A stretch of DNA of 64,000 bases from Dehalococcoidia bacterium (GCA_029936675.1 JAPYSB010000008.1:3110-67109), one strand, 5' to 3'. Counted from the stretch's first letter, positions 4,471 through 47,118 are shown. Notes: generated by a model not told the origin, from the letters alone. A program made the numbers and translations.

Positions 4471-5643
4471 TTGTCTCTCAGTACTGTCAGTCTAGAGGAT
4501 CAAGTTAGAGAATGTGCCGTTTCTCTTGGATTTGACCTTGTTGGTATAACCGATTCTGGACCATTCGAAAGCGATGAAAAGGCCGCCATTAAACGTATAA
4601 ATGACGGGCATATGGAAGGGTATCAATGGTATACAAAGGAACGGGTACGAAAGATGAATCGCCCCCAACTTCTTTTAGAAAATGCTAAATCAGTAATATC
4701 CCTAGCGACAAGTTACCTAACAACGGAGCCCGATACAGGCACATTTAAGAATGGGCGAGTAGCTAGATATGCGTGGGGAGATGATTATCATGAAGTCCTT
4801 AAATCTAAACTAAAGGACTTTTGCGTAAAACTGCAAGAAATCTCTGGCAGAGATATAAATACGCGTATCTTTGTGGATGATGGACCAATGAATGATAGGG
4901 CTGCTGCACGAAGGTCCGGGGTAGGGTGGTTTGGTAAAAACACAAATATATTGACTCCAACCCATGGGTCATGGGTTTTTCTATCCCAAGTGATTACCGA
5001 TTTGAATTTAAAACCGGATAACCCGCTAAAAAAAACTTGTGGCAACTGTGTGAAATGTATAGATGACTGCCCCACTGGAGCAATTGTAGCCCCTTATGTG
5101 ATAGATAATGAAAAATGCATCTCTTATCTAACAATCGAGCTTCGAGGTGTTATTCCTAGGAAATTGAGAGCCCTAATGGGGGATTGGATTTTTGGTTGTG
5201 ATATCTGTCAGGACGTGTGTCCTGTTAATAAAAAAGCTTCAAAAAGCAATCTTGGTGCGTTTTATCAAAGGCCTGGCTTTTCAACACCAGATCTGGTTGA
5301 AATATTGAGTATGGATCAGGCTGAATTCAGTAGAAAATATAAAAATAGCCCTATAAAAAGAACCAAATTGGTAGGGTTAAAAAGAAATGCATGTGTTGCT
5401 TTAGGGAATAATGGCGACCCCAATGCAATTAAAGCGCTATCCACCGCTTTAAAAATGACTGAAACTGTAATTCGCATACATGCCGCTTGGGCCTTAGGGG
5501 TGATAGGGGGGAAAATTCCTCTAGCACTGCTAGAGGAGGCACTCCAATCCGAGGAAGACCAGGACACGATAGATGAAATTCAGATGTCTATTGGAGAAAT
5601 TGGCATCCGGATATCTCGCAAGGAATTAAAAAATGCCGGGTAA
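4471..5643 (+). CDS. queG: Epoxyqueuosine reductase
   Basis: 390 aa with a TTG start. Two ferredoxin-type clusters (CGNCVKCIDDCP, CDICQDVCP), a WGDDYH region and a C-terminal HEAT-like repeat (IRIHAAWALG). Confidence 0.92.
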   Translation: MSLSTVSLEDQVRECAVSLGFDLVGITDSGPFESDEKAAIKRINDGHMEGYQWYTKERVRKMNRPQLLLENAKSVISLATSYLTTEPDTGTFKNGRVARYAWGDDYHEVLKSKLKDFCVKLQEISGRDINTRIFVDDGPMNDRAAARRSGVGWFGKNTNILTPTHGSWVFLSQVITDLNLKPDNPLKKTCGNCVKCIDDCPTGAIVAPYVIDNEKCISYLTIELRGVIPRKLRALMGDWIFGCDICQDVCPVNKKASKSNLGAFYQRPGFSTPDLVEILSMDQAEFSRKYKNSPIKRTKLVGLKRNACVALGNNGDPNAIKALSTALKMTETVIRIHAAWALGVIGGKIPLALLEEALQSEEDQDTIDEIQMSIGEIGIRISRKELKNAG

Positions 5644-18174: not shown

Positions 18175-18373
18175 TTCATCTCCCTCTATTTTGGAACCTA
18201 ATCATTTTATATTAAAAATTAAGATCAGAGTGGCTTCGTCATAATGTTCAAATTGCGATATAATTTGCAAACTTTCAAAATATATCCTAGTAGAAACAAA
18301 CGAGGAATGAGAGGAGCAAGCCAAGTGATGGTTTGGTTTGTTTGGTGACCAAGAGTTTGGAGAGTTTTGCTCC

Positions 18374-20596
18374 ATGGTTAATGTTGGGAATGTAATTGTT
18401 GACGATGCCTTATATGAAAAAATGGGGCATTACCTTGCCTCCGACAAGGTAGAACTGGTTGCTAAAGCCTATGCTTTTGCCGAAAAAGCACACGCTGGTC
18501 AGAGCCGGCTTTCCGGAGAGGAATTTTTTGAACACCCAAAACAGACGGCCCTTTTTTTGGCTGATCTCCGTTTGGATGCAAACGCGCTATCTGCTGCTCT
18601 TCTTCACGATGTTTTGGAAGACTGTGATGTTACTTTTGCCGAACTTTCAATGGAATTTGGGAGTGACGTGGCAGGGTTGGTGGATGGGGTTACAAAGCTT
18701 ACCAAAGCGGAGGTAATGGGAGATTCCCAGTTTTTGCCGGGGTCCCAGAGTGCATTCGAGGAGACTTCATTAGAAGACATTGCTCAAGCAGAGACGTTGC
18801 GAAAAATGCTTATGGCAATGGCCGAGGATGTTAGGGTGGTTTTAATCAAACTAGCCGATAGGCTACATAACATGAGAACTGTCGGGTCACTGCCTCAAAT
18901 TCGCCGAGAAGCGATGGCCAAAGAGACTTTGGAAATATATGCCCCGCTGGCTCACAGGTTGGGCATTTGGGAAATAAAATGGATGCTTGAGGATTTATCT
19001 TTCCAACAAATAGATCCTGATGCATATAAACAAATTTCCCTTCGATTGAATTCTAAACGTGGCAAGCGGGAAGAGTATATTGCCAAAGTTGTGGAAATAG
19101 TAAAATCTGAACTTGATAAAGCTGGTATATCAGCGGATATATATGGGAGACCCAAACACATATATAGCATTCATAAGAAGGCAGAAAGGTATCATGAATC
19201 CAACAGAGAGGTCAGTGAAATATATGACCTTTTTGCTGTGCGTATCCTAGTAAATGAAGTTAAAGATTGTTATGGAACTCTTGGAGTGATGCATACTAAA
19301 TGGAGACCTTTGCCTGGACAATTTGATGACTACATAGCCAATCCTAAAGACAATCTCTACCAGTCACTCCACACTGCCGTTTTGTGTGAAGAATCCTCCC
19401 CAGTGGAGATTCAAATCCGAACTCATGATATGCATCAGGTAGCCGAATATGGCGTGGCAGCCCACTGGCTCTACAAGGAAACTGGGGAACTTGATGTTCA
19501 GTTTGAAGAAAAAATGACTTGGTTGCGACAACTTTTGGAATGGCAACGAGATGTGAGTGGAGCAGTAGAATTCGTAGAATCTTTCAAAACAGATATTTTT
19601 CAAAATCAGGTTTTTGTTTATACACCCAACGGCGAGGTCATAGAACTTCCGACTGGTTCCACCCCACTTGATTTTGCCTACAGAATTCATACGGATATTG
19701 GGCATGGGTGTGTTGGAGCTAAGGTGAATGGTAAGTTGGTGGCTTTGAATTATCAGCTACAAAACGGTGACACTATTCAGATAATGACCAGTAAGGTCAC
19801 TAGAGGGCCAAGTCTTGATTGGATTAACCCTAGTCTGGGATATGCCAAAACTTCTTCAGCACGAGCCAAGATGCGCCAGTGGTTTAACCGACAAGAGCGC
19901 CAAACAAATATAGAACGTGGGAAAGAAGTATTCCAGAAGCAATTAGCAAGATTAGATTTAAATGTCACCCCGGAAATAGTGGTGGAAATGTTTAGGTATA
20001 AAACTGTTGATGATATGTTCGCCGATTTGGGCGGAGGTTCATTATCAACAACCAAATTGATATCTAGGATATCGTTGAAATCTGAACTTCCTGGTGATCT
20101 GATTCGCTCGACACCACCTAAAACAGGACCGGCTTCAGGAGTTCAGGTCCTTGGGGTAGGAGATCTTCTAACCAATATTGCCAGATGCTGTAATCCAATA
20201 ATTGGGGATGAAATTACAGGTTTTATTACGAGGGGACGAGGTGTCACTGTACACAGGAAATCGTGTCCAAATATAATCTCTGAAGATGAGTTGGAACGGA
20301 TAGTACCGGTAGATTGGGGAGAATCTAGGACGTTGTATCCGGTAAGAATTCAATTGGATTGTTGGGACCGTGTTGGATTGTTAGGAGATGTTACATCAGT
20401 GGTCTCTACCGAACGAATTAATATTGCCAATATTAATTCTGAAGAGTACGATGATAGGTGCGTCATTTCGCTGACGGTATACACAAATGGGATTGATCAG
20501 CTTGGACATTTGTACACGAAATTAGAGGCTGTTAATGGAGTTGATGTGGTTACCCGGCTGAGGAATATTGATTCCCGAAATGATATTGAAAATTAG
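18374..20596 (+). CDS. rel: Bifunctional (p)ppGpp synthetase/hydrolase
   Basis: HD domain (AALLHDVLED), synthetase (YQSLHT), TGS and C-terminal ACT domains. I prefer ATG 18374 (GGAG upstream) to the track's TTG at 18338. Confidence 0.93.
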   Translation: MVNVGNVIVDDALYEKMGHYLASDKVELVAKAYAFAEKAHAGQSRLSGEEFFEHPKQTALFLADLRLDANALSAALLHDVLEDCDVTFAELSMEFGSDVAGLVDGVTKLTKAEVMGDSQFLPGSQSAFEETSLEDIAQAETLRKMLMAMAEDVRVVLIKLADRLHNMRTVGSLPQIRREAMAKETLEIYAPLAHRLGIWEIKWMLEDLSFQQIDPDAYKQISLRLNSKRGKREEYIAKVVEIVKSELDKAGISADIYGRPKHIYSIHKKAERYHESNREVSEIYDLFAVRILVNEVKDCYGTLGVMHTKWRPLPGQFDDYIANPKDNLYQSLHTAVLCEESSPVEIQIRTHDMHQVAEYGVAAHWLYKETGELDVQFEEKMTWLRQLLEWQRDVSGAVEFVESFKTDIFQNQVFVYTPNGEVIELPTGSTPLDFAYRIHTDIGHGCVGAKVNGKLVALNYQLQNGDTIQIMTSKVTRGPSLDWINPSLGYAKTSSARAKMRQWFNRQERQTNIERGKEVFQKQLARLDLNVTPEIVVEMFRYKTVDDMFADLGGGSLSTTKLISRISLKSELPGDLIRSTPPKTGPASGVQVLGVGDLLTNIARCCNPIIGDEITGFITRGRGVTVHRKSCPNIISEDELERIVPVDWGESRTLYPVRIQLDCWDRVGLLGDVTSVVSTERINIANINSEEYDDRCVISLTVYTNGIDQLGHLYTKLEAVNGVDVVTRLRNIDSRNDIEN

Positions 20597-20629
20597 TTTT
20601 TAGAAAATGCAATAGGAGACTCGAGTAAA

Positions 20630-20893
20630 GTGCCAAGCGCAAAAGCTTTTAGGGTTAGTGAAAGAAAGAAAAGTATCAACCAACCCTTAAGATCACGGGC
20701 CAGAAATTTGGTTACGAGGACGCGGAGGATGATTGCTGACGGGGACATAGAAGGTGCTGAAGTAGCCGCAAAAGGGGCGGTAGTGGCTTTGGATAAAGCC
20801 GCTGGGAAGGGAGCGATGCACAAAAATACGGTGTCCAGAAAGAAATCAAGACTTATCAAGCATCTTAACGATGCTAAGAACAACCAGGAGTAA
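20630..20893 (+). CDS. rpsT: 30S ribosomal protein S20
   Basis: 87 aa with a GTG start. [20 protein letters not shown]...[12 protein letters not shown]. Confidence 0.93.
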
Positions 20894-20898
20894 CTGTC

Positions 20899-21168
20899 AT
20901 GCTTAGAATTAGGCTTAGAAGGACAGGCTCTAAGAACCAACCAAGCTATCGAATAGTTGTGGCAGATTCTCGTAAGCCGAGAGATGGGCGCTTTGTTGAA
21001 AACCTAGGGCACTATAACCCCCGCTTTGATCCTCCGGAAATGGTTGTGGATACTGAAAAGGCACAAAAATGGATTAGTCAGGGAGCTCAGCCCTCCGATG
21101 CTGTAAAGAGAATAATAGAAAAAGTTTCGAGTCGAAATGAAGACTCTACAGACGAGGAAGAAGCGTAA
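20899..21168 (+). CDS. rpsP: 30S ribosomal protein S16
   Basis: [35 protein letters not shown]. Confidence 0.97.
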
Positions 21169-21212
21169 ATCCTCTCAAATGAAATTCAATTGCCTCTCCA
21201 TTCTCAGTTAAT

Positions 21213-21443
21213 ATGAAAGAACTTATAGAGTATATAGCTAAATCTATTGTGTCTTATCCAGATGACGTTGTAGTTTCTTCCAGTGAGAAAGATGACGGAG
21301 ATGTCACCTATTTATTGCAGGTTCATCCTGACGACAAGGGTCGAGTGATTGGACGACAAGGCAGAGTTGCTCAATCAATAAGAAGTTTGTTAAGGGTAGC
21401 GGCTGTCAAGAATGGATTGCATGTCAGCCTGGAGATCGAATAA
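21213..21443 (+). CDS. KH-domain RNA-binding protein (YlqC/UPF0109 family)
   Basis: 76 aa with GRVIGRQGRVAQSIRSLL. Sits in the canonical position between rpsP and rimM. Confidence 0.9.
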   Translation: MKELIEYIAKSIVSYPDDVVVSSSEKDDGDVTYLLQVHPDDKGRVIGRQGRVAQSIRSLLRVAAVKNGLHVSLEIE

Positions 21444-21449
21444 AACTCT

Positions 21450-21470
21450 CACGTTCCACGTTCCACGTTT
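21450..21470. repeat. Heptamer tandem repeat, CACGTTC x3 (last copy CACGTTT)
   Basis: Read directly in the KH-rimM spacer. Confidence 0.9.
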
Positions 21471-21533
21471 CCTAGCGATCAGTAGAATCGGGTCGTAGCA
21501 ACTCGGGAAAATATTATTCATGGTTGGTTCAAT

Positions 21534-22043
21534 ATGGATGACGATTTAGTCACAGTGGGAATAATACGGGGTGTCCGAGGTCTCCGAGGTCAATTACGAG
21601 TCGAATCTCTATCTGATTTTCCACAGAGATTTTTAAAAGGACAATCCCTGCAACTGAATGGCCTGCTTAGGGTGATAGTTAATGTTTCTAATGACAAAAA
21701 AGGATTAATTGTAGAGCTAGGTGGTATTGATAGTCGGGAGGCTGCTGAGAAATACCGGGGATGCGAACTGAAGATTGACTCTCAAGAATCTGGGAACTTG
21801 AATTCAGAAAACAGCTATTTCCACCATGAAATCATTGGTATGGTAGTTTTGGACGAAAACAACACGGAATTGGGAGCTGTGAAAGAGATTATAGAAACAG
21901 GAGCTAATGACGTATACGTTGTGAGCAATTCAATAGATAAAGATATTTTGATACCAGCGATCAGTTCAGTTGTGGGTGAGGTATGTGTGGGGAGTAAAAC
22001 TATGAAAATTACTCTTCCAAAAGGCCTAAATACGAGGAACTGA
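21534..22043 (+). CDS. rimM: 16S rRNA processing protein RimM
   Basis: 169 aa. GIIRGVRGLRGQLRVESLSD N-terminus and a PRC-barrel C-terminus. Confidence 0.92.
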   Translation: MDDDLVTVGIIRGVRGLRGQLRVESLSDFPQRFLKGQSLQLNGLLRVIVNVSNDKKGLIVELGGIDSREAAEKYRGCELKIDSQESGNLNSENSYFHHEIIGMVVLDENNTELGAVKEIIETGANDVYVVSNSIDKDILIPAISSVVGEVCVGSKTMKITLPKGLNTRN

Positions 22044-22134
22044 ATTTGCACCGACCTGATTCAAGTCATTTGATATTGGTTTGCTAATGCACATCAGCCT
22101 CTAATTTGTTCGTGTATTTTAGACTTTTTAATCG

Positions 22135-22163
22135 TTGACACACATTTTATCCATAGCTATAAT
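22135..22163 (+). promoter_or_regulatory. Consensus sigma70-type promoter upstream of rpsL
   Basis: TTGACA (22135-22140), a 17-nt spacer, then TATAAT (22158-22163). Located about 70 nt upstream of the rpsL ATG. Confidence 0.6.
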
Positions 22164-22232
22164 TATTCCTTGTCGCCCCAAAAGCGGTGGCTTATTTCGG
22201 CAAAAAAAAGAGACAAAAAAACAGGAAATTTT

Positions 22233-22649
22233 ATGCCTACGGTTAACCAACTGATAAGGAAGAAGAGGCGCAAGAAGGCACGGAAAAATACGGCACCTGC
22301 GTTAGATCTTACTTGGAACACTCTGAAGAACAAGGGTAGCCGAGGAGCACGTTCTCCACATAAACGTGGAGTATGTGTCCAAGTTAGAACCCAGACACCT
22401 AAGAAGCCTAATTCAGCTTTAAGGAAGGTAGCTCGGGTGAGACTGACCAATGGGATGGAGGTCACGGCCTATATTCCAGGTGAGGGACATAATTTGCAGG
22501 AACACTCAGTCGTTTTGATAAGAGGGGGTAAGGTCCGGGATTTGCCAGGAGTACGGTATCACGTCGTGCGAGGGGTTTTAGATACAGCTGGAGTGCAGGA
22601 CCGAAAGAGAAGTCGTAGTAAATACGGAACTCGAATAGAAGAAAATTAA
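22233..22649 (+). CDS. rpsL: 30S ribosomal protein S12
   Basis: [10 protein letters not shown]...[19 protein letters not shown]...[10 protein letters not shown]. The start is trimmed to ATG 22233. Carries a roughly 14-aa insert between PAL and KRGVC, like Bacillus-type S12. Confidence 0.97.
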
Positions 22650-25287: not shown

Positions 25288-25602
25288 ATGGTACAAAACG
25301 CTCAAAAAATTAGAGTTATATTAAAGGCATTTGATCACAGAATTTTGGATCAGTCCGCCGGTCAGATAGTTGAAACTGCTGAAAGGACTGGAGCTAGGGT
25401 TGCTGGTCCGGTGCCACTACCCACTGCTATCAAACGGTTTTGTGTGTTAAGGGCGCCCCATATTGATAAGGATTCTCGAGAGCATTTCGAGATGAGGACT
25501 CATAACCGACTTATCGATATACATAACCCCACATCTAAAACGATAGATTCATTGACTAATCTGGACATGCCTGCTGGTGTGGACATATCAATCAAATTGT
25601 AG
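25288..25602 (+). CDS. rpsJ: 30S ribosomal protein S10
   Basis: [16 protein letters not shown]...GPVPLPT...RTHNRLIDI. Confidence 0.98.
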
Positions 25603-25612
25603 GTACAGAAAG

Positions 25613-26245
25613 ATGTCAATTGTAGGGATAATAGGAAAAATAATCGGGGGGACCCAGTATTTTTATGAAGACGGTACTGCTCACGCAGTTACCGCTATTG
25701 AAGCTGGTCCTTGCACTATCACACAGATCAAATCTTTGAAGAAAGATGGATACCAAAGCGTTCAATTGGGATTTGAAAGGATTAAGAAGTCAAATAAACC
25801 AAAAAAAGGCCACTTGGCAGTGGCTGGCATCGATCTGTTCCGATATCTCAGAGAGACAAAGTCTGAAAACTATGAAGATTTAGAACTGGGGTCCCAAATT
25901 GACGTGGGAATGTTTGAGGTCGATGAAAAAGTTAATGTCACAGGGGTTTCGAAAGGGAAAGGGTTTCAAGGAGGGGTTAAAAGATATAACTTTCGGGGAG
26001 GACCCAAAACTCACGGTCAATCTGACAGGCATCGTGCACCAGGATCAATTGGAGCTGGGACCACCCCTGGACGTGTCATCAAAGGAATGAGAATGGCAGG
26101 TCGTATGGGTGGAGACAAGGTGACTGTGAAGAATTTGGATGTCGTAATGGTGGATGCTGAGAGGAATCTGTTGTTGGTGAAAGGTGCTGTGCCAGGGCAT
26201 CGTAATTCTGTGTTACTTATATCTAAATCCAATACCAAGAGTTAA
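25613..26245 (+). CDS. rplC: 50S ribosomal protein L3
   Basis: MSIVGIIGKIIGGTQ...FQGGVKRYNFRGGPKTHGQSDRHRAPGSIG. The start is trimmed to ATG 25613. Confidence 0.97.
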   Translation: MSIVGIIGKIIGGTQYFYEDGTAHAVTAIEAGPCTITQIKSLKKDGYQSVQLGFERIKKSNKPKKGHLAVAGIDLFRYLRETKSENYEDLELGSQIDVGMFEVDEKVNVTGVSKGKGFQGGVKRYNFRGGPKTHGQSDRHRAPGSIGAGTTPGRVIKGMRMAGRMGGDKVTVKNLDVVMVDAERNLLLVKGAVPGHRNSVLLISKSNTKS

Positions 26246-26250
26246 AAGTA

Positions 26251-27198
26251 GTGAAACTTCAAATAAAAAATATTCAGGGAGAGAACACTGGCGATTTGGA
26301 AGTTCGTGACGATGTTTTTGGGGTGCCTGTTAAATCAGCCTTGGTTCATCAAGTAATGGTTGGCCAGCTGGCCAACAAGAGGCAAGGCACGGCCAAAACC
26401 AAAACCAGATCAGAAGTGTCAGGCGGCGGAGCTAAACCTCGACCACAAAAGGGCACAGGAAGCTCCAGACAGGGTTCTACTAGTTCTCCTGTGTGGGTTG
26501 GTGGCGGAAGAGCCTTCGGCCCTTCCCCGCGAAGCTACAGGAAGCGGACTCCCAAAAAGATGAGACGTTTGGCATTGCTGTCAGTCCTGTCTGATAAGGC
26601 CCGCCACTCAGATTTACTTCTTCTTGATTCTCTAGAATTGAAGGAAGGAAAGACAAAAGAGATTGTGTCGATACTTTCTGATCTGAACATCTCGAATTCA
26701 GCTTTGATAGTGACTGATGGACCAAATAAAAAACTGGTTCAATCAGCTGGAAATGTTGATGGAGTAAGAACTTTACCAGTGCAAGTACTCAACACATTAG
26801 AGTTACTTAATAAAAAACAATTAATAATCACGGTTGACGCAGTAAAAAGGATTGAAGAGTTATGGGGAGGAGTCTATAGGGGGGAAATTTCTTCAAACAA
26901 TCCTTCAAGCGAAGAAATTGGTGTGGAGAAAGAAGAAGCTCATGCTGAACCCCAAATCGTGGAAGATCCAGTGGAAGAGATCGTTGCTGAAGAAGTCAAC
27001 ATAACTTCTGTAGAAGAGCTCAACCTTTCGACCAGAACTAGAAACATATTGTTGCAAGCAGGCGTTACTGAAATCAAGGATTTGATCGGTCTATCCAAAG
27101 TAGAACTTATGGCGATACAAAGTTTTGGAGAGAAGTCATTTCTGGAAGTTCAGCAACAGCTGCAAAATATAAAGTTACTGCCCTCAGACTGGGAATAA
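26251..27198 (+). CDS. rplD: 50S ribosomal protein L4 with a C-terminal acidic linker and an RNA polymerase alpha-CTD-like helix-hairpin-helix domain
   Basis: 315 aa with a GTG start. Residues 1-206 are canonical uL4 (KGTGSSRQGSTSSPVWVGGGRAFGP). Residues 250-315 align colinearly with the rpoA C-terminal domain in this window. Confidence 0.93.
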   Translation: MKLQIKNIQGENTGDLEVRDDVFGVPVKSALVHQVMVGQLANKRQGTAKTKTRSEVSGGGAKPRPQKGTGSSRQGSTSSPVWVGGGRAFGPSPRSYRKRTPKKMRRLALLSVLSDKARHSDLLLLDSLELKEGKTKEIVSILSDLNISNSALIVTDGPNKKLVQSAGNVDGVRTLPVQVLNTLELLNKKQLIITVDAVKRIEELWGGVYRGEISSNNPSSEEIGVEKEEAHAEPQIVEDPVEEIVAEEVNITSVEELNLSTRTRNILLQAGVTEIKDLIGLSKVELMAIQSFGEKSFLEVQQQLQNIKLLPSDWE

Positions 27199-27211: not shown

Positions 27212-27505
27212 ATGAGTAAGCATCATAAATACGCAATTCTAAAACGCCCATTGATTACAGAAAAATCTACGTTGATGCAAGAAGATGGTCGCTATGTTTT
27301 TGAAGTCGCCAAAACCGCTACCAAACTGGAAGTTAAAGAGGCAGTCCAGGAAGTTTTCGGGGTCACGGTGATTAAAGTCAACACCATGAACGTGAAAGGG
27401 AAAATGAAGCGCTTTGGCCCTAAGTTTTCCCAGAGGCCCTCTTGGAAGAAGGCTGTTGTTTCGGTGGCTCCCGGGGATTCAATAACTTTGTTTGAGGGAG
27501 TTTGA
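27212..27505 (+). CDS. rplW: 50S ribosomal protein L23
   Basis: [11 protein letters not shown]...[17 protein letters not shown]. Confidence 0.97.
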
Positions 27506-28672: not shown

Positions 28673-29011
28673 GTGAGTATAAGAGCAAAATCGAGTAATA
28701 CAGGGATATCGGTAAAAAAACTGAAGCCTATAGCTAATTTAGTTAGGGGTATGAAGGTCGATGAGGCCTTGATAGCCTTGCAATTTATGCAGTCGCCAGC
28801 GGCAGCTAGGGTTGCAAAAACTGTAAAATCAGCGGCTTCAAATGCAGAAAATGAACTGATGGCTCGGAGCGAGGATTTAAAAATAATCGAAATATTTGCT
28901 AATGAGGGCCCTCGACTCAAAAGATTTAGAGCTCGAGCGAAGGGAAGAGTTGGACGTATTAATAGAAGAAGTAGCCATATAACAGTTGTAGTTGAAGAGG
29001 AGGAACTGTAG
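28673..29011 (+). CDS. rplV: 50S ribosomal protein L22
   Basis: 112 aa with a GTG start. [20 protein letters not shown]...AA. Confidence 0.96.
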
Positions 29012-29012
29012 T

Positions 29013-29849
29013 TTGGGACAGAAAATTCACCCTAATGGTTTTAGAGTAGGCATTACTAGAGATTGGCATGCTACTTGGTTTGCTGGGCAAAAAGAGTACG
29101 CTAGCCTTGTGAAAGAGGATATTAATATCCGGCAAGCAATAGATGTGATGTATGAAGATGCTGGAATATCAAAGGTTGATATCGAAAGGGATTCTAATGA
29201 GGTGGCAGTCACCATCCATACCGCAAGACCCGGTATTGTGATTGGTAGAGGAGGGGTGAGGGTAGACGAGCTTAGGAAACATTTGGAAACCCTTACAGGA
29301 AACCGTAGAGCCAAACTTAATGTAGTAGAGGTTAGGCAAGCAGAATTAGATGCCTATCTCGTAGCTCGCAACGTCGCCGACCAACTTGAAAGGAGAATAG
29401 CCTTTAGAAGAGCTATTCGACAGGCAGTAATGCGAACAATGCAGGCTGGGGCTGAGGGAATAAAAATCACATGTTCAGGAAGACTTGCTGGTGCGGATAT
29501 AGCCAGAGCAGAGAAAGCGATGGAAGGGAGGGTTCCTTTGCACACCCTTAGGGCAGACATAGATTATGGTTTAGCAGAGGCTAAAACAGAGTTCGGTGTC
29601 ATTGGGGTAAAAGTATGGATTTGCAGAGGAGAAATATTGAACCCCACGATAATTGGGGAAAATTCATCTAGTTCAGAACAAACTGCTGCTTCAAACGAAA
29701 TAGAAGAAATAGATGTGGCACCAATCCAGGTGATGGTTACGGCTCAAGATGATAATCCCGTTTCTACAGGATCTCCGTTGGATCAAACAGAATCGGTGAA
29801 CGAAGACAACAAGAAAGATGAAGGGGCAAATACAGATGCTTCAACCTAA
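29013..29849 (+). CDS. rpsC: 30S ribosomal protein S3 with a roughly 68-aa acidic C-terminal tail
   Basis: TTG start giving (M)[13 protein letters not shown], with KH and S3-C domains. The core ends near VWICRGEIL (about aa 209), and a low-complexity tail runs to aa 278. Confidence 0.95.
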
Positions 29850-39870: not shown

Positions 39871-40920
39871 ATGGTAACGGATTATACTGCTATGTCGATC
39901 TTGGATGCTCCTGAAGAGGAAGAGGAGGACATTGTTGCCAATCCACGTATATCGGTGGCGGAAGCATCAGAAACGTATGGGAAATTTGTAATTGGCCCTT
40001 TAGACCCTGGCTACGGTGTAACTTTAGGGAATCCATTAAGAAGAGTTCTATACAATTCCTTATCTGGCGCCGCTATTACTTGGGTAAAAATCGAAGGAAC
40101 TCTGCATGAGTATTCAAATATTGACAACATCAAAGAAGAGGTTTCAGAGATATTGCTCAATGTAAAGAACTTGAGGATACGGACCGAATCGGAATCTGTG
40201 GGACAGCTTAGACTGGTGACCAAAGGAGAAGGAAAAATTACTGCCGCGGATATTACGCCTTCTTCAGAAATCACTGTAGTAAATACCGAGCAGCATATTG
40301 CCACCTTAGACTCCCCCGACGCGGAACTTAATATGGTTTTGAATGTTGATTATGGAAAAGGCTATAAGGTAGCCGATAGCAGCGAAGGGCATCCCATAGG
40401 GGTAATTCCTATAGACGCTGTATTTACGCCGGTTAGAAAGGTTAATTACACCATAAACCAAACTAGAGTAGGACAGAGGACAGACTTTGAAGAACTTCAT
40501 TTTGAAGTATGGACAGATGGGTCAAAATATCCTGTGGAGGCAGTTATAGAGGCTGCAAATATATTGGTGAATCAGTTTTTTCTTTTCACCAAGGCGGAAG
40601 ACGCCCAGGAAGGCTCTGATGGAGTATCAATGGATATACCGGCAGAGCATTACAACATGACAGTTGAAGAGTTAGAACTTTCATCTAGAACTTTGAACTG
40701 CCTTAAGCGGGCCGCCCTTAATAAGGTTGGCGAAGTTATGGAAAAGTCAAAGAGTGAATTGTTGGAGATAAGGAATTTCGGAGAAAAATCCTACAAGGAA
40801 CTTTATGACAGGTTTAGAGAACTGGAAATACTCCCAGATCATCTAGATCCAGAATTGAAGGCCAACCAAGAAGAACAAACCGCAGAAAACAATCCTGAAA
40901 TCGAAGTTGATGAAGGATAG
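39871..40920 (+). CDS. rpoA: DNA-directed RNA polymerase subunit alpha
   Basis: 349 aa with AGGAGG upstream. NTD has YGKFVIGPLDPGYGVTLGNPLRRVL and the CTD has EELELSSRTLNCLKRA...IRNFGEKSYKEL. An acidic stretch of roughly 24 aa precedes the conserved core. Confidence 0.97.
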   Translation: MVTDYTAMSILDAPEEEEEDIVANPRISVAEASETYGKFVIGPLDPGYGVTLGNPLRRVLYNSLSGAAITWVKIEGTLHEYSNIDNIKEEVSEILLNVKNLRIRTESESVGQLRLVTKGEGKITAADITPSSEITVVNTEQHIATLDSPDAELNMVLNVDYGKGYKVADSSEGHPIGVIPIDAVFTPVRKVNYTINQTRVGQRTDFEELHFEVWTDGSKYPVEAVIEAANILVNQFFLFTKAEDAQEGSDGVSMDIPAEHYNMTVEELELSSRTLNCLKRAALNKVGEVMEKSKSELLEIRNFGEKSYKELYDRFRELEILPDHLDPELKANQEEQTAENNPEIEVDEG

Positions 40921-42956: not shown

Positions 42957-43059
42957 CTTAAACTGTAACTTGAGTTTCCTGGTGCTATAGAGATAGGTGC
43001 GGAGATTGGCAAATTCGAGAGCCATAACGTCAGCTGTTTTTAATACCTCTAGATTATCC

Positions 43060-43725
43060 ATGGCAATGGAAAACTATCTTTTGTCTATTCTTCGCCTTGA
43101 GGAACAACAGACCAGAGTTTCCGTTGCCCAATTGTCTGAGCATTTTAAAACTTTGCCGCTAGGTGAAGGATTAGGCACATCGCTTCCTTCTGTCAGTGCA
43201 ATGATCAGACGGATGTCCAGAGAAAAATTGGTTGGTATCTCCACAGACAAAGAAATTGTGTTAACCAAAAATGGTCGTCAATATGCGGAAGTTATTTTGC
43301 GAAGACACCGGCTAGCTGAAAGACTTTTGGTAGATGTCTTGAAAATCGATCTTGAGTTTGCTCACATCGAGGCACATAGGCTGGAACATACGATGTCTCC
43401 ATACCTAGAACAGAAGGTTGTAGACTTACTAGATAACCCTCAGACTTGTCCCTTTGGACATCCGATACCGGGAAGTGGTTATACTATTCCAGCTAACGCC
43501 ATAACGTTAGATAAATGTAGGCCTGGCAACAAATATGTTTTGGATAGGGTTCCTGAGGATAATCAAGACTTGTTAACCTATTTTGTTGAAAAAGGATTTA
43601 TACCAGGCACTTCCATTAGAATAACCGACTCATCTTTGCCAAGGGGGATCGTAACCCTAAAATGCAATCAAAATGAACTTGTTTTTAGTACTGTAGTGGC
43701 TCAACTTATATGGGTTAGACCCTGA
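43060..43725 (+). CDS. DtxR/MntR-family metal-dependent transcriptional regulator with a C-terminal FeoA/SH3-like domain
   Basis: MENYLLSILRLEE..., then RRHRLAERLL and AH..AHRLEH metal-site helices, and a C-terminal SH3-like segment. The start is trimmed to ATG 43060. Confidence 0.85.
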   Translation: MAMENYLLSILRLEEQQTRVSVAQLSEHFKTLPLGEGLGTSLPSVSAMIRRMSREKLVGISTDKEIVLTKNGRQYAEVILRRHRLAERLLVDVLKIDLEFAHIEAHRLEHTMSPYLEQKVVDLLDNPQTCPFGHPIPGSGYTIPANAITLDKCRPGNKYVLDRVPEDNQDLLTYFVEKGFIPGTSIRITDSSLPRGIVTLKCNQNELVFSTVVAQLIWVRP

Positions 43726-43738
43726 GAAGTAAAAAGTT

Positions 43739-45295
43739 TTGAAAATCGTCTCATCTCACCAAATGCAGGATCTTGAAGCTAGGAGCGAAACACTCGGAAT
43801 ATCCACCAATGAATTGATGAATAACGCTGGGTTCTCAATAGCAAGCCACATAGCGAAAAGTATGGGGCCGTTGAAAGGGTTGAAAGTGGTTTCGCTCGTG
43901 GGGACAGGAAACAACGGATCTGATTGTTTAATAGCTAGTGGCCACTTAGCGAAGTGGGGAGCTTCAGTTACTGCTGTGATTCTCAAACCACGTTTGGAAC
44001 CTGACTTAAGGCGTCAGGAAACTTTGGAGATGGGAATTTCAGTGATAGATATAAATGAAGGAAAAGAAAATTGTTCTTTTTCCTCAGTTCATTCGCTTTT
44101 AAGGAATGCCCACGTAATAGTCGATGGCATTTTAGGTATTGGTACAAGGTTACCCATTCGTGATCCCTTTAAAACGGTTCTTTCTGGTATTAGGGCCTTA
44201 AATGGAAAAAAAGCGAAGGTTTTTTCTATAGATGTCCCATCTGGTGTCGATTCTGACACCTCTGCGGTGGATTCCTCGGCTTTTAAACCAGATGTGACGC
44301 TTGCTCTTGGTCATTTAAAACCTTGTCATGTTAATCAGCCCTCTGCAGATTTTTGTGGGGAAATAATTATTTGTGATATTGGTTTGCCAAATCATTTAAG
44401 CGTTGAGATAGATACCGCATTGCTGTGCGATGAATATGTAAGACTAATTTTGCCAGGTCGATCGATTTCATCCCATAAAGGTAGCTATGGAAAAGCGATG
44501 GTAGTAGGTGGGTCAGATAACTACATTGGTGCCCCGGTTCTTGCAGCCTCCTCAGCTATGAAAACAGGACTCGGGCTAGTGACTATCGCAACCTTCAAAC
44601 ATTTAGTAAATCCTATGGCTAATATGTTCCCTGAAGCTACCTTTTTGAGTCTCAAAGAGGACAGAATGGATATAAGGTCCGGCCAACATATGGCAAGGCA
44701 AATTTTTGAAGCAGTTGAAGACTATAAAGTTTTATTAATTGGATGTGGATTTGGAACCTCGCGAACAGCATACACAATTTTTCAAAATCTAGTTCTGTCT
44801 AATATTAAACTTCCGCAACTTGTTTTAGATGCTGACGGTTTGAATATGCTTTCTAAGATTTCGAACTGGTGGGATAAGATACCTTTTAACACTATATTAA
44901 CCCCACACCCTAAGGAAATGTCACGTTTAACTAGGCTGCCAGTGTCAGAAATACAGTCGGACCGTCTAAATGTTGCAAAAACATTTTCAAAGCAATGGGG
45001 AGTTATTGTGGTTCTAAAAGGTGCCAATACTGTGATATGTGATCCAAATGGTTCTTCAAAAATAAGTCCTTTTGCAAATCCCATTTTATCTTCTGCTGGC
45101 ACCGGCGACGTATTGGCAGGTTTGATTGCAGGCTTCGTTGGACAGGGCAGTAGCCCTTTGGAAGCTTCTTCTTTGGGAGTTTACACGCATGGTAAAACTG
45201 CTGAATCAGTTTCACTTCAGATGGGATCTTCAGGGTTACTTGCAACTGAATTGGCGAATAATGTGCCATTTACGATCAAATATTTGAGGGATTAG
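43739..45295 (+). CDS. nnr: Bifunctional NAD(P)H-hydrate repair enzyme (epimerase/ADP-dependent dehydratase)
   Basis: 518 aa with a TTG start. YjeF-N domain (GTGNNGSD), and a C-terminal carbohydrate-kinase domain (HKGSYGK..VVGGS, GTGDVLAG). Confidence 0.92.
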   Translation: MKIVSSHQMQDLEARSETLGISTNELMNNAGFSIASHIAKSMGPLKGLKVVSLVGTGNNGSDCLIASGHLAKWGASVTAVILKPRLEPDLRRQETLEMGISVIDINEGKENCSFSSVHSLLRNAHVIVDGILGIGTRLPIRDPFKTVLSGIRALNGKKAKVFSIDVPSGVDSDTSAVDSSAFKPDVTLALGHLKPCHVNQPSADFCGEIIICDIGLPNHLSVEIDTALLCDEYVRLILPGRSISSHKGSYGKAMVVGGSDNYIGAPVLAASSAMKTGLGLVTIATFKHLVNPMANMFPEATFLSLKEDRMDIRSGQHMARQIFEAVEDYKVLLIGCGFGTSRTAYTIFQNLVLSNIKLPQLVLDADGLNMLSKISNWWDKIPFNTILTPHPKEMSRLTRLPVSEIQSDRLNVAKTFSKQWGVIVVLKGANTVICDPNGSSKISPFANPILSSAGTGDVLAGLIAGFVGQGSSPLEASSLGVYTHGKTAESVSLQMGSSGLLATELANNVPFTIKYLRD

Positions 45296-45302
45296 AAATA
45301 CT

Positions 45303-46019
45303 TTGGTTCAGCTTAAAGGTAATGATAGATCGGCTTTTGTGGCATCAATGTTTGGAAGAATTTCACGCCGATATGATCTGCTAAATACCCTCATGACTGT
45401 TGGATTGCATTACATGTGGAGAAAAAAAGCGGCGGAATTAGCTACAGCTCATGTTTCGGGGGATATTTTAGATGTCGCTTCTGGTACTGGTGATTTTGCC
45501 TTTGACTTACTTAAATACTCCAATGTCAACATTGTTGTTGGACTGGATTTCTCTCCCGAAATGTTAGATGTTGCTATAAGAAAAAGTGTTAGATTGGGGT
45601 TAGATAGTAGATTTATTCCTGTGATAGGCGATGCACATATTCTGCCGTTTCCGAATGAAAGGTTTGCTAGTGCTACGGTTGGATTTGGAGTACGAAATTT
45701 TTCTGATCTGCCGAAGGCGTTGGCCGATATCGTAAGAGTAACTAGGCGGGGTGGCAAAGTTACTGTGTTGGAAATTGTTAGGCCTCAAGGTAGATTGGCA
45801 TCTGTTTTATTTTTGCGTTATTTCAGGTGGGTGACCCCTAAATTGGGAAGAATTTTCGCTGGGGATTACGAAGCTTATAAATATCTTCCAGAATCTGTTC
45901 AGAATTTTATGTCAGCTGCCCAGCTTTCTGAAATTTTAGAAGGCGCAGGATTGCGAAACTTAGTTGTTGATACTAAAGGGATGGGGTCAATCGCTATAAT
46001 TTCAGGGGAACGACCTTAA
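45303..46019 (+). CDS. ubiE: Demethylmenaquinone/ubiquinone C-methyltransferase
   Basis: FGRISRRYDLLN...LDVASGTGD...PF.NE.FA..T.GFG.RN. 238 aa with a TTG start. Confidence 0.88.
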   Translation: MVQLKGNDRSAFVASMFGRISRRYDLLNTLMTVGLHYMWRKKAAELATAHVSGDILDVASGTGDFAFDLLKYSNVNIVVGLDFSPEMLDVAIRKSVRLGLDSRFIPVIGDAHILPFPNERFASATVGFGVRNFSDLPKALADIVRVTRRGGKVTVLEIVRPQGRLASVLFLRYFRWVTPKLGRIFAGDYEAYKYLPESVQNFMSAAQLSEILEGAGLRNLVVDTKGMGSIAIISGERP

Positions 46020-46020
46020 T

Positions 46021-47118
46021 TCAAGGTCTTACATCCAAGATTATTTCTGTCACCAAGGGAGATTTTTCAGAAATATAAGTCACTGTTACTATATCACCTA
46101 CATCATAACCCCAAAGAAGAGGCAAGAATTCTGACATTGTTGGAGTTGGGGTTCCGTTAATTGCGGTAATGACATCCCCTACCTTTAGTTTTCCGTTATC
46201 TGCGGGACCATTCGGTGATATTTGGGTGACGAATATACCTTCTGCAACACCTAAATCATACCTCTTTGAAATTGTACTAGTCGTATTCATGCCACGGAGT
46301 CCTATTAATGGACGGGTCACCTTTCCTTCTTTTATGAGACTATTGATCACCGGCTGTGCAACCGAAGAAGATACTGAAAACCCTATTCCTTGAGCACCAC
46401 TATAGACGGCCGTGTTTATACCAATGACTTCTCCCTCGTCGCTGACCAAAGGGCCACCACTGTTACCTTGATTGATAGCAGCGTCAGTTTGGATCATGTC
46501 GTATAAATCTCCTCTTTCAGTCTGAACTGTTCTTCCGACACCGCTTATGATGCCGAATGTCACGCTTGGCCCACCCCTCAAACCTAATGCGTTCCCAATC
46601 GTAAATACCCAATCTCCGGGCCTAAGTGCACGAGATTCCCCAAATTTAATTGTAGAAAGATTGTCCGCCTCTATTTTTATGACGGCGAGATCAGTTAAAA
46701 CATCAAGGCCTACTATTTCAGCTGAATAGTTTCTGCCATCTGATAGAGATACTTCTATATCAGATGTATTTTGTATCACATGGTAATTGGTAACAATATA
46801 CCCATCATTACTGATGATTATGCCGGTACCAGATCCTTCATCAGTAAAATCAAAGAAGCGGCCCCTTGAAACTATGTCTACGGATATGGATACAACAGAT
46901 TGTTGGACATTTTCAACTAAATCAGCTAAGGGGAACAAATTTTGTGTAACGGGGGGGCTTTTATCTGAATGAATATTTTCAAGTGTAATTTTTTGAGTAA
47001 AGTCATTTGAATCAATGACAAGAGAGCGATCCTCATCATTAGAACAAGCATAAGTTGCCAAAACGGCAATTACCAAGAAAAAAGAACGAATATGTTTAAG
47101 GTTTAATTGAACGAACAA
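46021..47118 (-). CDS. htrA: HtrA/DegP-family serine protease with one PDZ domain
   Basis: N-terminal signal/anchor, triad context TNYHV...D...GNSGGPL, and a C-terminal PDZ domain (GDVITAINGTP). Confidence 0.92.
   Translation of the reverse strand: MFVQLNLKHIRSFFLVIAVLATYACSNDEDRSLVIDSNDFTQKITLENIHSDKSPPVTQNLFPLADLVENVQQSVVSISVDIVSRGRFFDFTDEGSGTGIIISNDGYIVTNYHVIQNTSDIEVSLSDGRNYSAEIVGLDVLTDLAVIKIEADNLSTIKFGESRALRPGDWVFTIGNALGLRGGPSVTFGIISGVGRTVQTERGDLYDMIQTDAAINQGNSGGPLVSDEGEVIGINTAVYSGAQGIGFSVSSSVAQPVINSLIKEGKVTRPLIGLRGMNTTSTISKRYDLGVAEGIFVTQISPNGPADNGKLKVGDVITAINGTPTPTMSEFLPLLWGYDVGDIVTVTYISEKSPLVTEIILDVRP

Follow-up and report, generated by a model that had tools for sequence, protein, structure and literature searches.

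The window examined here is a 64,000-nucleotide (nt) stretch of the genome of a Dehalococcoidia bacterium (GCA_029936675.1 JAPYSB010000008.1:3110-67109), and our subject is its rplD gene, whose product joins ribosomal protein uL4 (L4) to a domain related to the C-terminal domain of the RNA polymerase (RNAP) α subunit (αCTD). The gene sits in the canonical rplD slot of the S10 cluster, within the order rpsJ-rplC-rplD-rplW-rplB (Table 1). As an initial annotation made from the sequence had proposed, rplD is a single frame of 315 codons plus a stop, opened by GTG and free of interruptions, and nt 26869 corresponds to codon 207, where that annotation placed the start of an added segment.

A uL4 protein with an αCTD tail

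That the first 206 residues are ordinary uL4 was borne out by a match to PF00573 (Ribosomal_L4) over residues 17-203, which covers nearly the full profile (positions 2-189 of 190; E 5.5e-67; 225.5 bits against a cutoff of 25.8). The fusion protein also matches the NCBIfam model TIGR03953 (rplD_bact) with 224.8 bits against a cutoff of 130.1. Residues 207-249 had been described as an acidic linker, and they contain 13 aspartates or glutamates as against two lysines or arginines; the linker string quoted at the time is present from residue 221. In most fusion clades, the net charge of the linker is between -8 and -14.

Residues 248-305 match PF03118 (RNA_pol_A_CTD) with an E value of 1.4e-13 and 50.8 bits, well above the gathering score of 23.8, as had been expected of a profile search, and the tail alone scores 53.7 bits. 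All 41 sequence matches of the tail in the PDB are RNAP α subunits (RpoA). Compared by BLASTP with the RpoA encoded in the same window, the tail has 29 identities over 69 positions (E 8e-15). The gapless alignment of the tail with rpoA that was counted by hand in the initial annotation is exact in its 24 identities over 59 positions, a number that none of 100,000 shuffles reached. Its coordinates needed correction: the aligned residues are 254-312 (nt 27010-27186) rather than 250-315, and the rpoA segment begins at nt 40663, not 40657. In a hidden Markov model (HMM) scan of the six-frame translation of the window, there were exactly two αCTD copies, the uL4 tail and rpoA.

The predicted structure of the tail is likewise that of an αCTD. 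The AlphaFold2 (AF2) model of the tail alone has four helices, with a predicted local distance difference test (pLDDT) score of 84 (above 93 in the core) and a predicted template modeling (pTM) score of 0.70. In a Foldseek search of the PDB with this model, the top 50 matches were all αCTDs, at a root-mean-square deviation (rmsd) of 0.7-1.0 Å. The best were 7vpd_S (TMt 0.93, rmsd 0.7 Å) and 1lb2_E, from the E. coli αCTD-CAP-DNA complex (rmsd 1.0 Å), and the 50 include αCTDs resolved as part of E. coli transcription-translation complexes (TTC-B) or bound to A/T-rich DNA. With the full-length model, whose uL4 core was badly modeled from a shallow alignment, Foldseek matched nothing but uL4 chains, and these at high rmsd; the tail was accordingly modeled and searched alone. 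In the whole-protein model (pTM 0.25), the linker has a pLDDT below 40, and the tail takes no fixed orientation relative to uL4. The charge (-1) and isoelectric point (5.2) of the tail match those of the E. coli and B. subtilis αCTDs. By sequence and predicted fold, then, the tail of this uL4 is a bona fide αCTD. Its N-terminal partner is uL4, not the dimerization and assembly domain of α, and a separate, complete rpoA lies in the window; the tail is therefore an αCTD paralogue rather than a subunit of RNAP.

Table 1. Positions of the features discussed, counted from the first letter of the window
Feature	Position	Strand	Basis or remark
σ70-type promoter (TTGACA-17-TATAAT) and 5′UTR hairpin, head of the rpsL-rpsG-fusA-rpsJ-rplC-rplD cluster	22135..22191	+	12/12 consensus match
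rplC	25577..26245		5′ neighbor of rplD
rplD, uL4-linker-αCTD fusion (315 aa)	26251..27198	+	single open reading frame, both Pfam domains
uL4 core including tunnel-loop region, aa 1-206	26251..26868	+	PF00573, low dN/dS
Acidic disordered linker, aa 207-247	26869..26991	+	charge count, AF2 pLDDT, indels
αCTD-like four-helix domain, aa 248-312	26992..27186	+	PF03118, fold match
C-terminal motif LLPSDW[E/D], aa 309-315	27175..27195	+	conserved residues
rplW	27212..27505		3′ neighbor of rplD
Genuine rpoA (349 aa)	39871..40920	+	open reading frame; CTD at nt 40654-40833
Junction and tail peptides of the fusion protein			GEISSNNPSSEEIGVEK, NILLQAGVTEIK, VELMAIQSFGEK

Recurrence of the fusion

Homologs were counted as clusters at 90% identity. 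Among the best 120 clusters related to the fusion protein, 119 have both Pfam domains in a protein of 311-315 aa, and the remaining one is a truncated protein from a contig of 1 kb. The clusters come from ENA, JGI, NCBI, TARA, and Logan assemblies, with contigs of up to 508 kb, and SAR202 was thus recovered from many separate marine metagenomes. The same in-frame architecture occurs in nine GTDB species-representative genomes labeled SAR202, Dehalococcoidia, or Chloroflexota, one of which is named SAR202-II. A second, more divergent fusion clade (P0126 and relatives; about 54% identical overall) contributes 18 clusters of 311-325 aa, and P0290 is a further variant, so that the total exceeds 130 independent clusters in at least four SAR202 subclades. 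In the P0126 clade, the 16-kb contig L024 carries the fusion at the rplD slot of an rpsL-rpsG-fusA-rpsJ-rplC-rplD-rplW cluster. Further metagenome loci with the fusion are L035, L036, L038, and L047, and in the recurrent loci rplW is always immediately 3′ of the fusion gene.

A long frame of this kind could arise as an assembly chimera or through a sequencing frameshift that joins rplD to a separate gene. Nothing was found in favor of such an artifact, and its chance is negligible: the same in-frame architecture recurs in hundreds of independent assemblies from all of the above sources, the 508-kb contig included, which rules this explanation out. We regard it as virtually certain that the uL4-αCTD architecture is real and under selection. 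There is one singleton chimera, the 202-aa protein P0122 on a 1,045-bp ENA contig, in which an unrelated N-terminal part of 108 aa precedes the uL4 linker and an αCTD that is 85% identical to the window tail. A viral copy of P0122 was looked for, and none was found. Because it is a singleton on so short a contig and has no viral match, P0122 probably reflects a chimera made in assembly and not another architecture.

Selection and conserved residues

Identities between clades were taken over the same genome pairs for the regions of uL4 and RpoA. The uL4 core is 88-89% identical, with a ratio of nonsynonymous to synonymous substitution rates (dN/dS) of 0.03-0.08. The corresponding values are 30-34% and 0.25-0.9 for the linker, which also has in-frame indels, and 54-68% and 0.08-0.35 for the αCTD tail, where synonymous divergence is saturated. 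For RpoA, identity is about 90% in the N-terminal domain and 93-97% in the CTD. Judged from these sequence comparisons, the tail is kept by purifying selection, yet it is far less constrained than a working RNAP αCTD, and its surface outside the helix-hairpin-helix (HhH) loops evolves freely.

The signature residues of the HhH and the arginine equivalent to E. coli R265, both singled out in the initial annotation, are conserved across the fusion clades. In an alignment with the E. coli αCTD and its functional numbering, R265, N268, G296, K298, and S299 correspond to R262, N265, G293, K295, and S296 of the tail, and these are invariant in all fusion clades and in SAR202 RpoA, save for one N-to-K exception. 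In RNAP, it is through its R265 face that the αCTD contacts NusA and the minor groove of UP elements. Four of the five contact residues are among the 13 invariant columns of 57 (P = 0.008), and all five are among the 18 columns conserved at 90% or more (P = 0.002). At the position of E261, which contacts σ, the window clade and a clade of 312-aa proteins have N or G, and the K271 equivalent is hydrophobic. In the C-terminal motif LLPSDW[E/D], residues L310, P311, D313, and W314 are invariant in 24 sequences of the window and 312-aa clades. The P0126 clade is without this motif and ends in an acidic tail, as RpoA does.

Origin and distribution

As far as sequence likeness can tell, the αCTD module of uL4 derives from an rpoA of SAR202 type. 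The signature SK.[ED]LL.I..FGEKSY is present in all tails and otherwise only in SAR202-type RpoA; outgroup RpoAs have NLG[KR]KS or NFG[EQ]KSL in its place. Tails of the P0126 clade are 57-68% identical to SAR202 RpoA CTDs and those of the window type 37-47%, while identity with the RpoA CTD of the same genome is 37-43%. In the P0126 clade, the likeness to RpoA runs into the α linker (N-I-P-E-P against D-I-P-A-E) and extends to the acidic C-terminal end. The P0126 identity, the common signature, and the linker likeness therefore point to the 3′ end of a SAR202-lineage rpoA as the source. Either a single capture followed by losses or repeated capture may lie behind the distribution. In the neighbor-joining tree of the uL4 core and in the tree of the 60-aa αCTD, deep nodes are unsupported, with unreliable bootstrap labels on the rerooted core tree, and no contig of the P0126 clade, the close contigs L025-L028 included, extends as far as rpoA.

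An exhaustive HMMER search with residues 151-315 against 1.84 billion representatives found only a few L4-αCTD representatives (P0121, P0124, P0126, and fragments), and the fusion is therefore phylogenetically narrow. A search with the tail only, in a database of 5.8 billion proteins and weakened by its word index, gave eight candidates, all fragments of L4 or RpoA. Thus, the architecture search that the initial annotation had in mind shows a recurrent fusion that, within the databases searched, is restricted to a subset of SAR202 (Chloroflexota, Dehalococcoidia) lineages. This restriction goes beyond that annotation, as do the fast evolution of the tail, the acid-only arms of sister lineages, and the reuse of the αCTD elsewhere.

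Genomes outside the class have a plain uL4 of about 205 aa. In sister SAR202 lineages without the αCTD, uL4 has acidic extensions of about 70 aa (L009-L012, P0133) or extensions of 27-47 aa (L031, L032, L040, L044, L068). Among them, the extensions of L009-L012, L040, L044, L068, and P0133 are acidic and 38-70 aa long. Most of the extensions terminate in a short amphipathic motif that may form a small docking helix (IRSAVEEIISNE, LRAAVKEVIHE, and LFNALVEEIDIEE are examples). The acid-only uL4 genes of sister lineages, and the sequence downstream of them, gave no αCTD remnant (HMM E > 0.2), and the start of rplW overlaps their stop codon. The arm also takes other forms. In P0290 (307 aa), uL4 and the αCTD are joined by a basic AKPK-repeat linker (AKPKAAAKPKATAKPKP); in other Chloroflexota, the extension of P0269 (269 aa), which lacks an αCTD, consists of histone-H1-like KPKAT repeats, and that of L014 is Pro/Glu-rich over 90 aa and finishes with RRRRTTKKK. 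On this comparison, the C terminus of uL4 in SAR202 is a variable arm onto which the αCTD was added.

The αCTD also occurs in other company. Metagenomic proteins of 200-1800 aa, among them P0123, P0125, P0127-P0132, P0137, and most of 150 HMMER matches, have 2-11 tandem PF03118 repeats, and in P0127 and P0137 the repeats stand beside σ70 region 4 and a HARE-HTH domain. NCBIfam also shows weak likeness to the αCTD within BREX PglW and within a β′ model. Going by these profile matches, the αCTD is a widely reused module outside RpoA.

The head of the cluster and its surroundings

The initial annotation had linked the fusion to E. coli, where L4 autoregulates the S10 operon with NusA. The evidence from the window does not support this link. 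A gap of just 12 nt between the fusA stop (25275) and the rpsJ ATG (25288) leaves no room for an S10 leader in the window, and a scan of its 64 kb at Rfam gathering thresholds returned 0 families, with no tRNA, riboswitch, or ribosomal protein leader despite a ribosomal protein cluster of about 20 kb. The E. coli mechanism, moreover, is a late development that only some γ-proteobacteria possess (PMC10931766).

Before the first genes of the cluster, an A/T-rich tract lies upstream of the rpsL promoter (for example 22100-22134, ahead of the -35 element). A GC-rich hairpin (22172..22191) marks the start of the untranslated region at the 5′ end (5′UTR) and is followed by U-rich and A-rich runs before rpsL. 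The same layout of promoter and hairpin (22135..22240, + strand, in the window) is present in the distant fusion-clade locus L024 (at about 4616..4700). An rpsL frame starting at TTG 22170 is an over-extension, because the true start is ATG 22233. The 5′UTR hairpin could be an mRNA-stabilizing element or an attenuator.

Upstream of the rpsL promoter (region 18338..22043) are genes for RelA/SpoT (752 aa) and RimM, and farther upstream for HisRS, an M24 peptidase, and an MFS transporter. The synteny RelA-S20-S16-KH-RimM-rpsL is common to the window and L024. Downstream of rpsI (42997..47118) are genes for a DtxR-type iron repressor with a FeoA domain, a YjeF protein for NAD(P)HX repair, a UbiE methyltransferase, and an HtrA protease. 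Within the cluster, uS3 (28992..29849, + strand; 285 aa) has an acidic, low-complexity C-terminal extension of about 60 aa, and the RpoA of the window is acidic at both ends, with an N-terminal extension of about 25 aa (EEEEED) and a C-terminal tail of 28 aa whose charge is -9. It appears to be a trait of the lineage that core expression proteins bear acidic tails.

Discussion

The reading that we prefer, with a probability of roughly 0.4, is that the αCTD of this uL4 is a tethered binder of DNA or of a transcription factor. The tail would dock onto duplex DNA rich in A/T, or else onto a component of the transcription machinery that partners the αCTD, for example NusA. In favor of this reading are the selected fold with its intact HhH loops, the divergence of the remaining tail surface, the flexible linker, the SAR202-type rpoA origin, and the precedent of the chloroplast uL4c docking arm (PMC8733628). 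Because the C terminus of uL4 would be at the solvent face of the 50S subunit, the αCTD would swing free, tens of Å from the ribosome surface, and it would also sit on free uL4 before assembly. Docking would then hold ribosomes or newly made uL4 near transcribing DNA, and the gain could be proximity of transcription and translation or cotranscriptional assembly of the 50S subunit. The more specific proposal, that the domain is a ribosome-to-transcription tether that couples 50S subunits or nascent uL4 to transcribing genes through DNA or NusA/RNAP, is possible but doubtful. NusG-uS10 and NusA-30S are bridges known in E. coli. If the proposal is true, SAR202 would have a distinct route of coupling or cotranscriptional assembly, made by duplicating the docking domain of RNAP itself.

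Several considerations weigh against a tethered binder of DNA or of a transcription factor. The known contacts between RNAP and the ribosome are on the 30S subunit, whereas uL4 is on the solvent side of the 50S. The strongly acidic linker could repel nucleic acid or autoinhibit its binding, and the linker of the P0290 lineage is basic, so that linker charge is no fixed requirement. Close relatives manage without an αCTD, and the domain is thus not essential to SAR202 ribosomes. Finally, the conserved contact residues are family-wide signatures of the αCTD and in part structural (G296 lies in the hairpin), and their invariance is consequently no proof of DNA binding.

Other functions can be envisaged for the tail. 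It may be a generic docking arm for a partner outside transcription, such as a membrane-targeting factor, a chaperone, an RNA helicase, or an RNase, with the αCTD as a folded cap in place of a short helical motif. The recurrent amphipathic motif at the end of the acidic arms of αCTD-less relatives is consistent with such an arm, as is the fast evolution of the tail surface outside the HhH loops. There are also precedents: chloroplast uL4c uses its acidic tail to dock Alb3 and cpSRP54 (PMC8733628), and in E. coli both SrmB and RNase E are bound by uL4 (PMC10931766). However, the invariant part of the tail is exactly the nucleic-acid- and NusA-binding face; we consider a generic arm rather unlikely. 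A role in ribosome structure or assembly, in which the HhH domain binds mature or nascent rRNA or a neighboring ribosomal protein, is unlikely as well, and we would say the same of its particular forms, stabilization of the SAR202 50S subunit or help with early cotranscriptional binding of uL4 to domain I of 23S rRNA. HhH modules do bind nucleic-acid backbones, and uL4 is an early 23S-binding protein whose eukaryotic counterpart has a long C-terminal extension over the subunit surface. Other ribosomal proteins of the cluster, such as uS3, also have lineage-specific extensions. A long, acidic linker that is so poorly conserved and subject to indels is nevertheless unlike a fixed structural element, rRNA should repel an acidic arm, and sister lineages have no αCTD.

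Free uL4-αCTD could also repress its own operon, either with the αCTD as a decoy on the UP-like A/T tract of rpsL or together with NusA at the 5′UTR hairpin. The perfect σ70 promoter, the A/T-rich tract, and the conserved hairpin with its U-rich run, which precede the first genes of the cluster in the window and L024 alike, would suit such a scheme, for which E. coli L4 and NusA offer a parallel (PMC10931766). We nonetheless find it quite improbable. In addition to the missing leader and the late, γ-proteobacterial origin of the E. coli mechanism, A/T-rich upstream DNA is unremarkable in a genome of 42% GC, and the layout of promoter and hairpin was compared between αCTD-bearing loci alone and hence is not tied to the αCTD. 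It is very unlikely, in our view, that the domain is a passenger close to neutrality, whereby a copy of the rpoA 3′ end joined a disordered uL4 tail that was tolerated beforehand and then stayed on with little function. A passenger would explain why the tail evolves so much faster than the RpoA CTD and why relatives do without it, and the uL4 C terminus of Chloroflexota does tolerate acidic, PAK-repeat, and Pro-rich extensions. Against this, the dN/dS of the tail is low (0.08-0.35, over saturated synonymous divergence), there is no stop or frameshift in more than 130 clusters, and the fold and binding loops are kept in four subclades down to about 43% tail identity.

Compared with known systems, the fusion belongs with lineage-specific extensions of ribosomal proteins and with the reuse of the αCTD. 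The tail resembles the RNAP αCTD (PF03118; PDB 1LB2, 3GFK, 7VPD) in fold, family, DNA/NusA-contact residues, and flexible linker. It differs in that it is not on the α N-terminal domain, has a linker that is acidic and about 2-3 times longer, has changed σ/activator-contact positions (the 261 and 271 equivalents), and evolves faster. The multi-αCTD repeat proteins (P0123, P0127, P0137) likewise reuse the αCTD outside RpoA, but as tandem arrays and not on ribosomal proteins. The C-terminal extension of chloroplast uL4c is acidic, disordered, and surface-exposed, and it binds Alb3 and cpSRP54 (PMC8733628). This streptophyte extension is a disordered, net-negative segment at the same terminus, a resemblance that is functional only and of independent origin; unlike the SAR202 tail, it has no folded domain, only its charge is conserved, and its partners are membrane-targeting factors. 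Plastid RPL4 co-purifies with a transcription complex, according to Trifa et al. 1998 as cited in PMC7186457, and a connection of plastid L4 with transcription has been proposed. In the NCBIfam model NF051449 (L4, sunset domain variant), a bacterial uL4 likewise has an extra C-terminal domain, an example of the terminus accepting domain fusions; our fusion protein fails this model, with 186.5 bits against a cutoff of 385 and a match to positions 2-189 of 285, the L4 core only. The extra-ribosomal regulation by E. coli uL4 differs in that it requires a structured S10 leader, absent in the window, and involves no extra domain.

The initial annotation knew of no description of this architecture, and text searches gave no publication either: no L4-αCTD fusion is described in the full-text literature searched, although most subscription journals were outside its scope, so that this is no proof of absence. 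NCBIfam names the fusion protein plain L4 and has no model for the long form, while precomputed Pfam annotations already show both domains on fusion proteins.

The fusion is of interest because the appended domain belongs to RNAP and because the hypothesis is directly testable. A domain of about 70 residues with predictable loss-of-function residues (R262, K295) bears on coupling and on ribosome assembly outside model organisms. If its function should turn out to be mundane, the fusion would still be a clean, datable domain capture with later relaxed constraint. More broadly, with chloroplasts, eukaryotes, the sunset variant, and several Chloroflexota variants as further instances, the uL4 C terminus emerges as a recurrent docking arm in evolution. 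As a Rosetta-stone fusion, a core ribosomal protein that carries a docking domain of RNAP points to a direct link between translation and transcription in SAR202, a group of abundant uncultured ocean bacteria.

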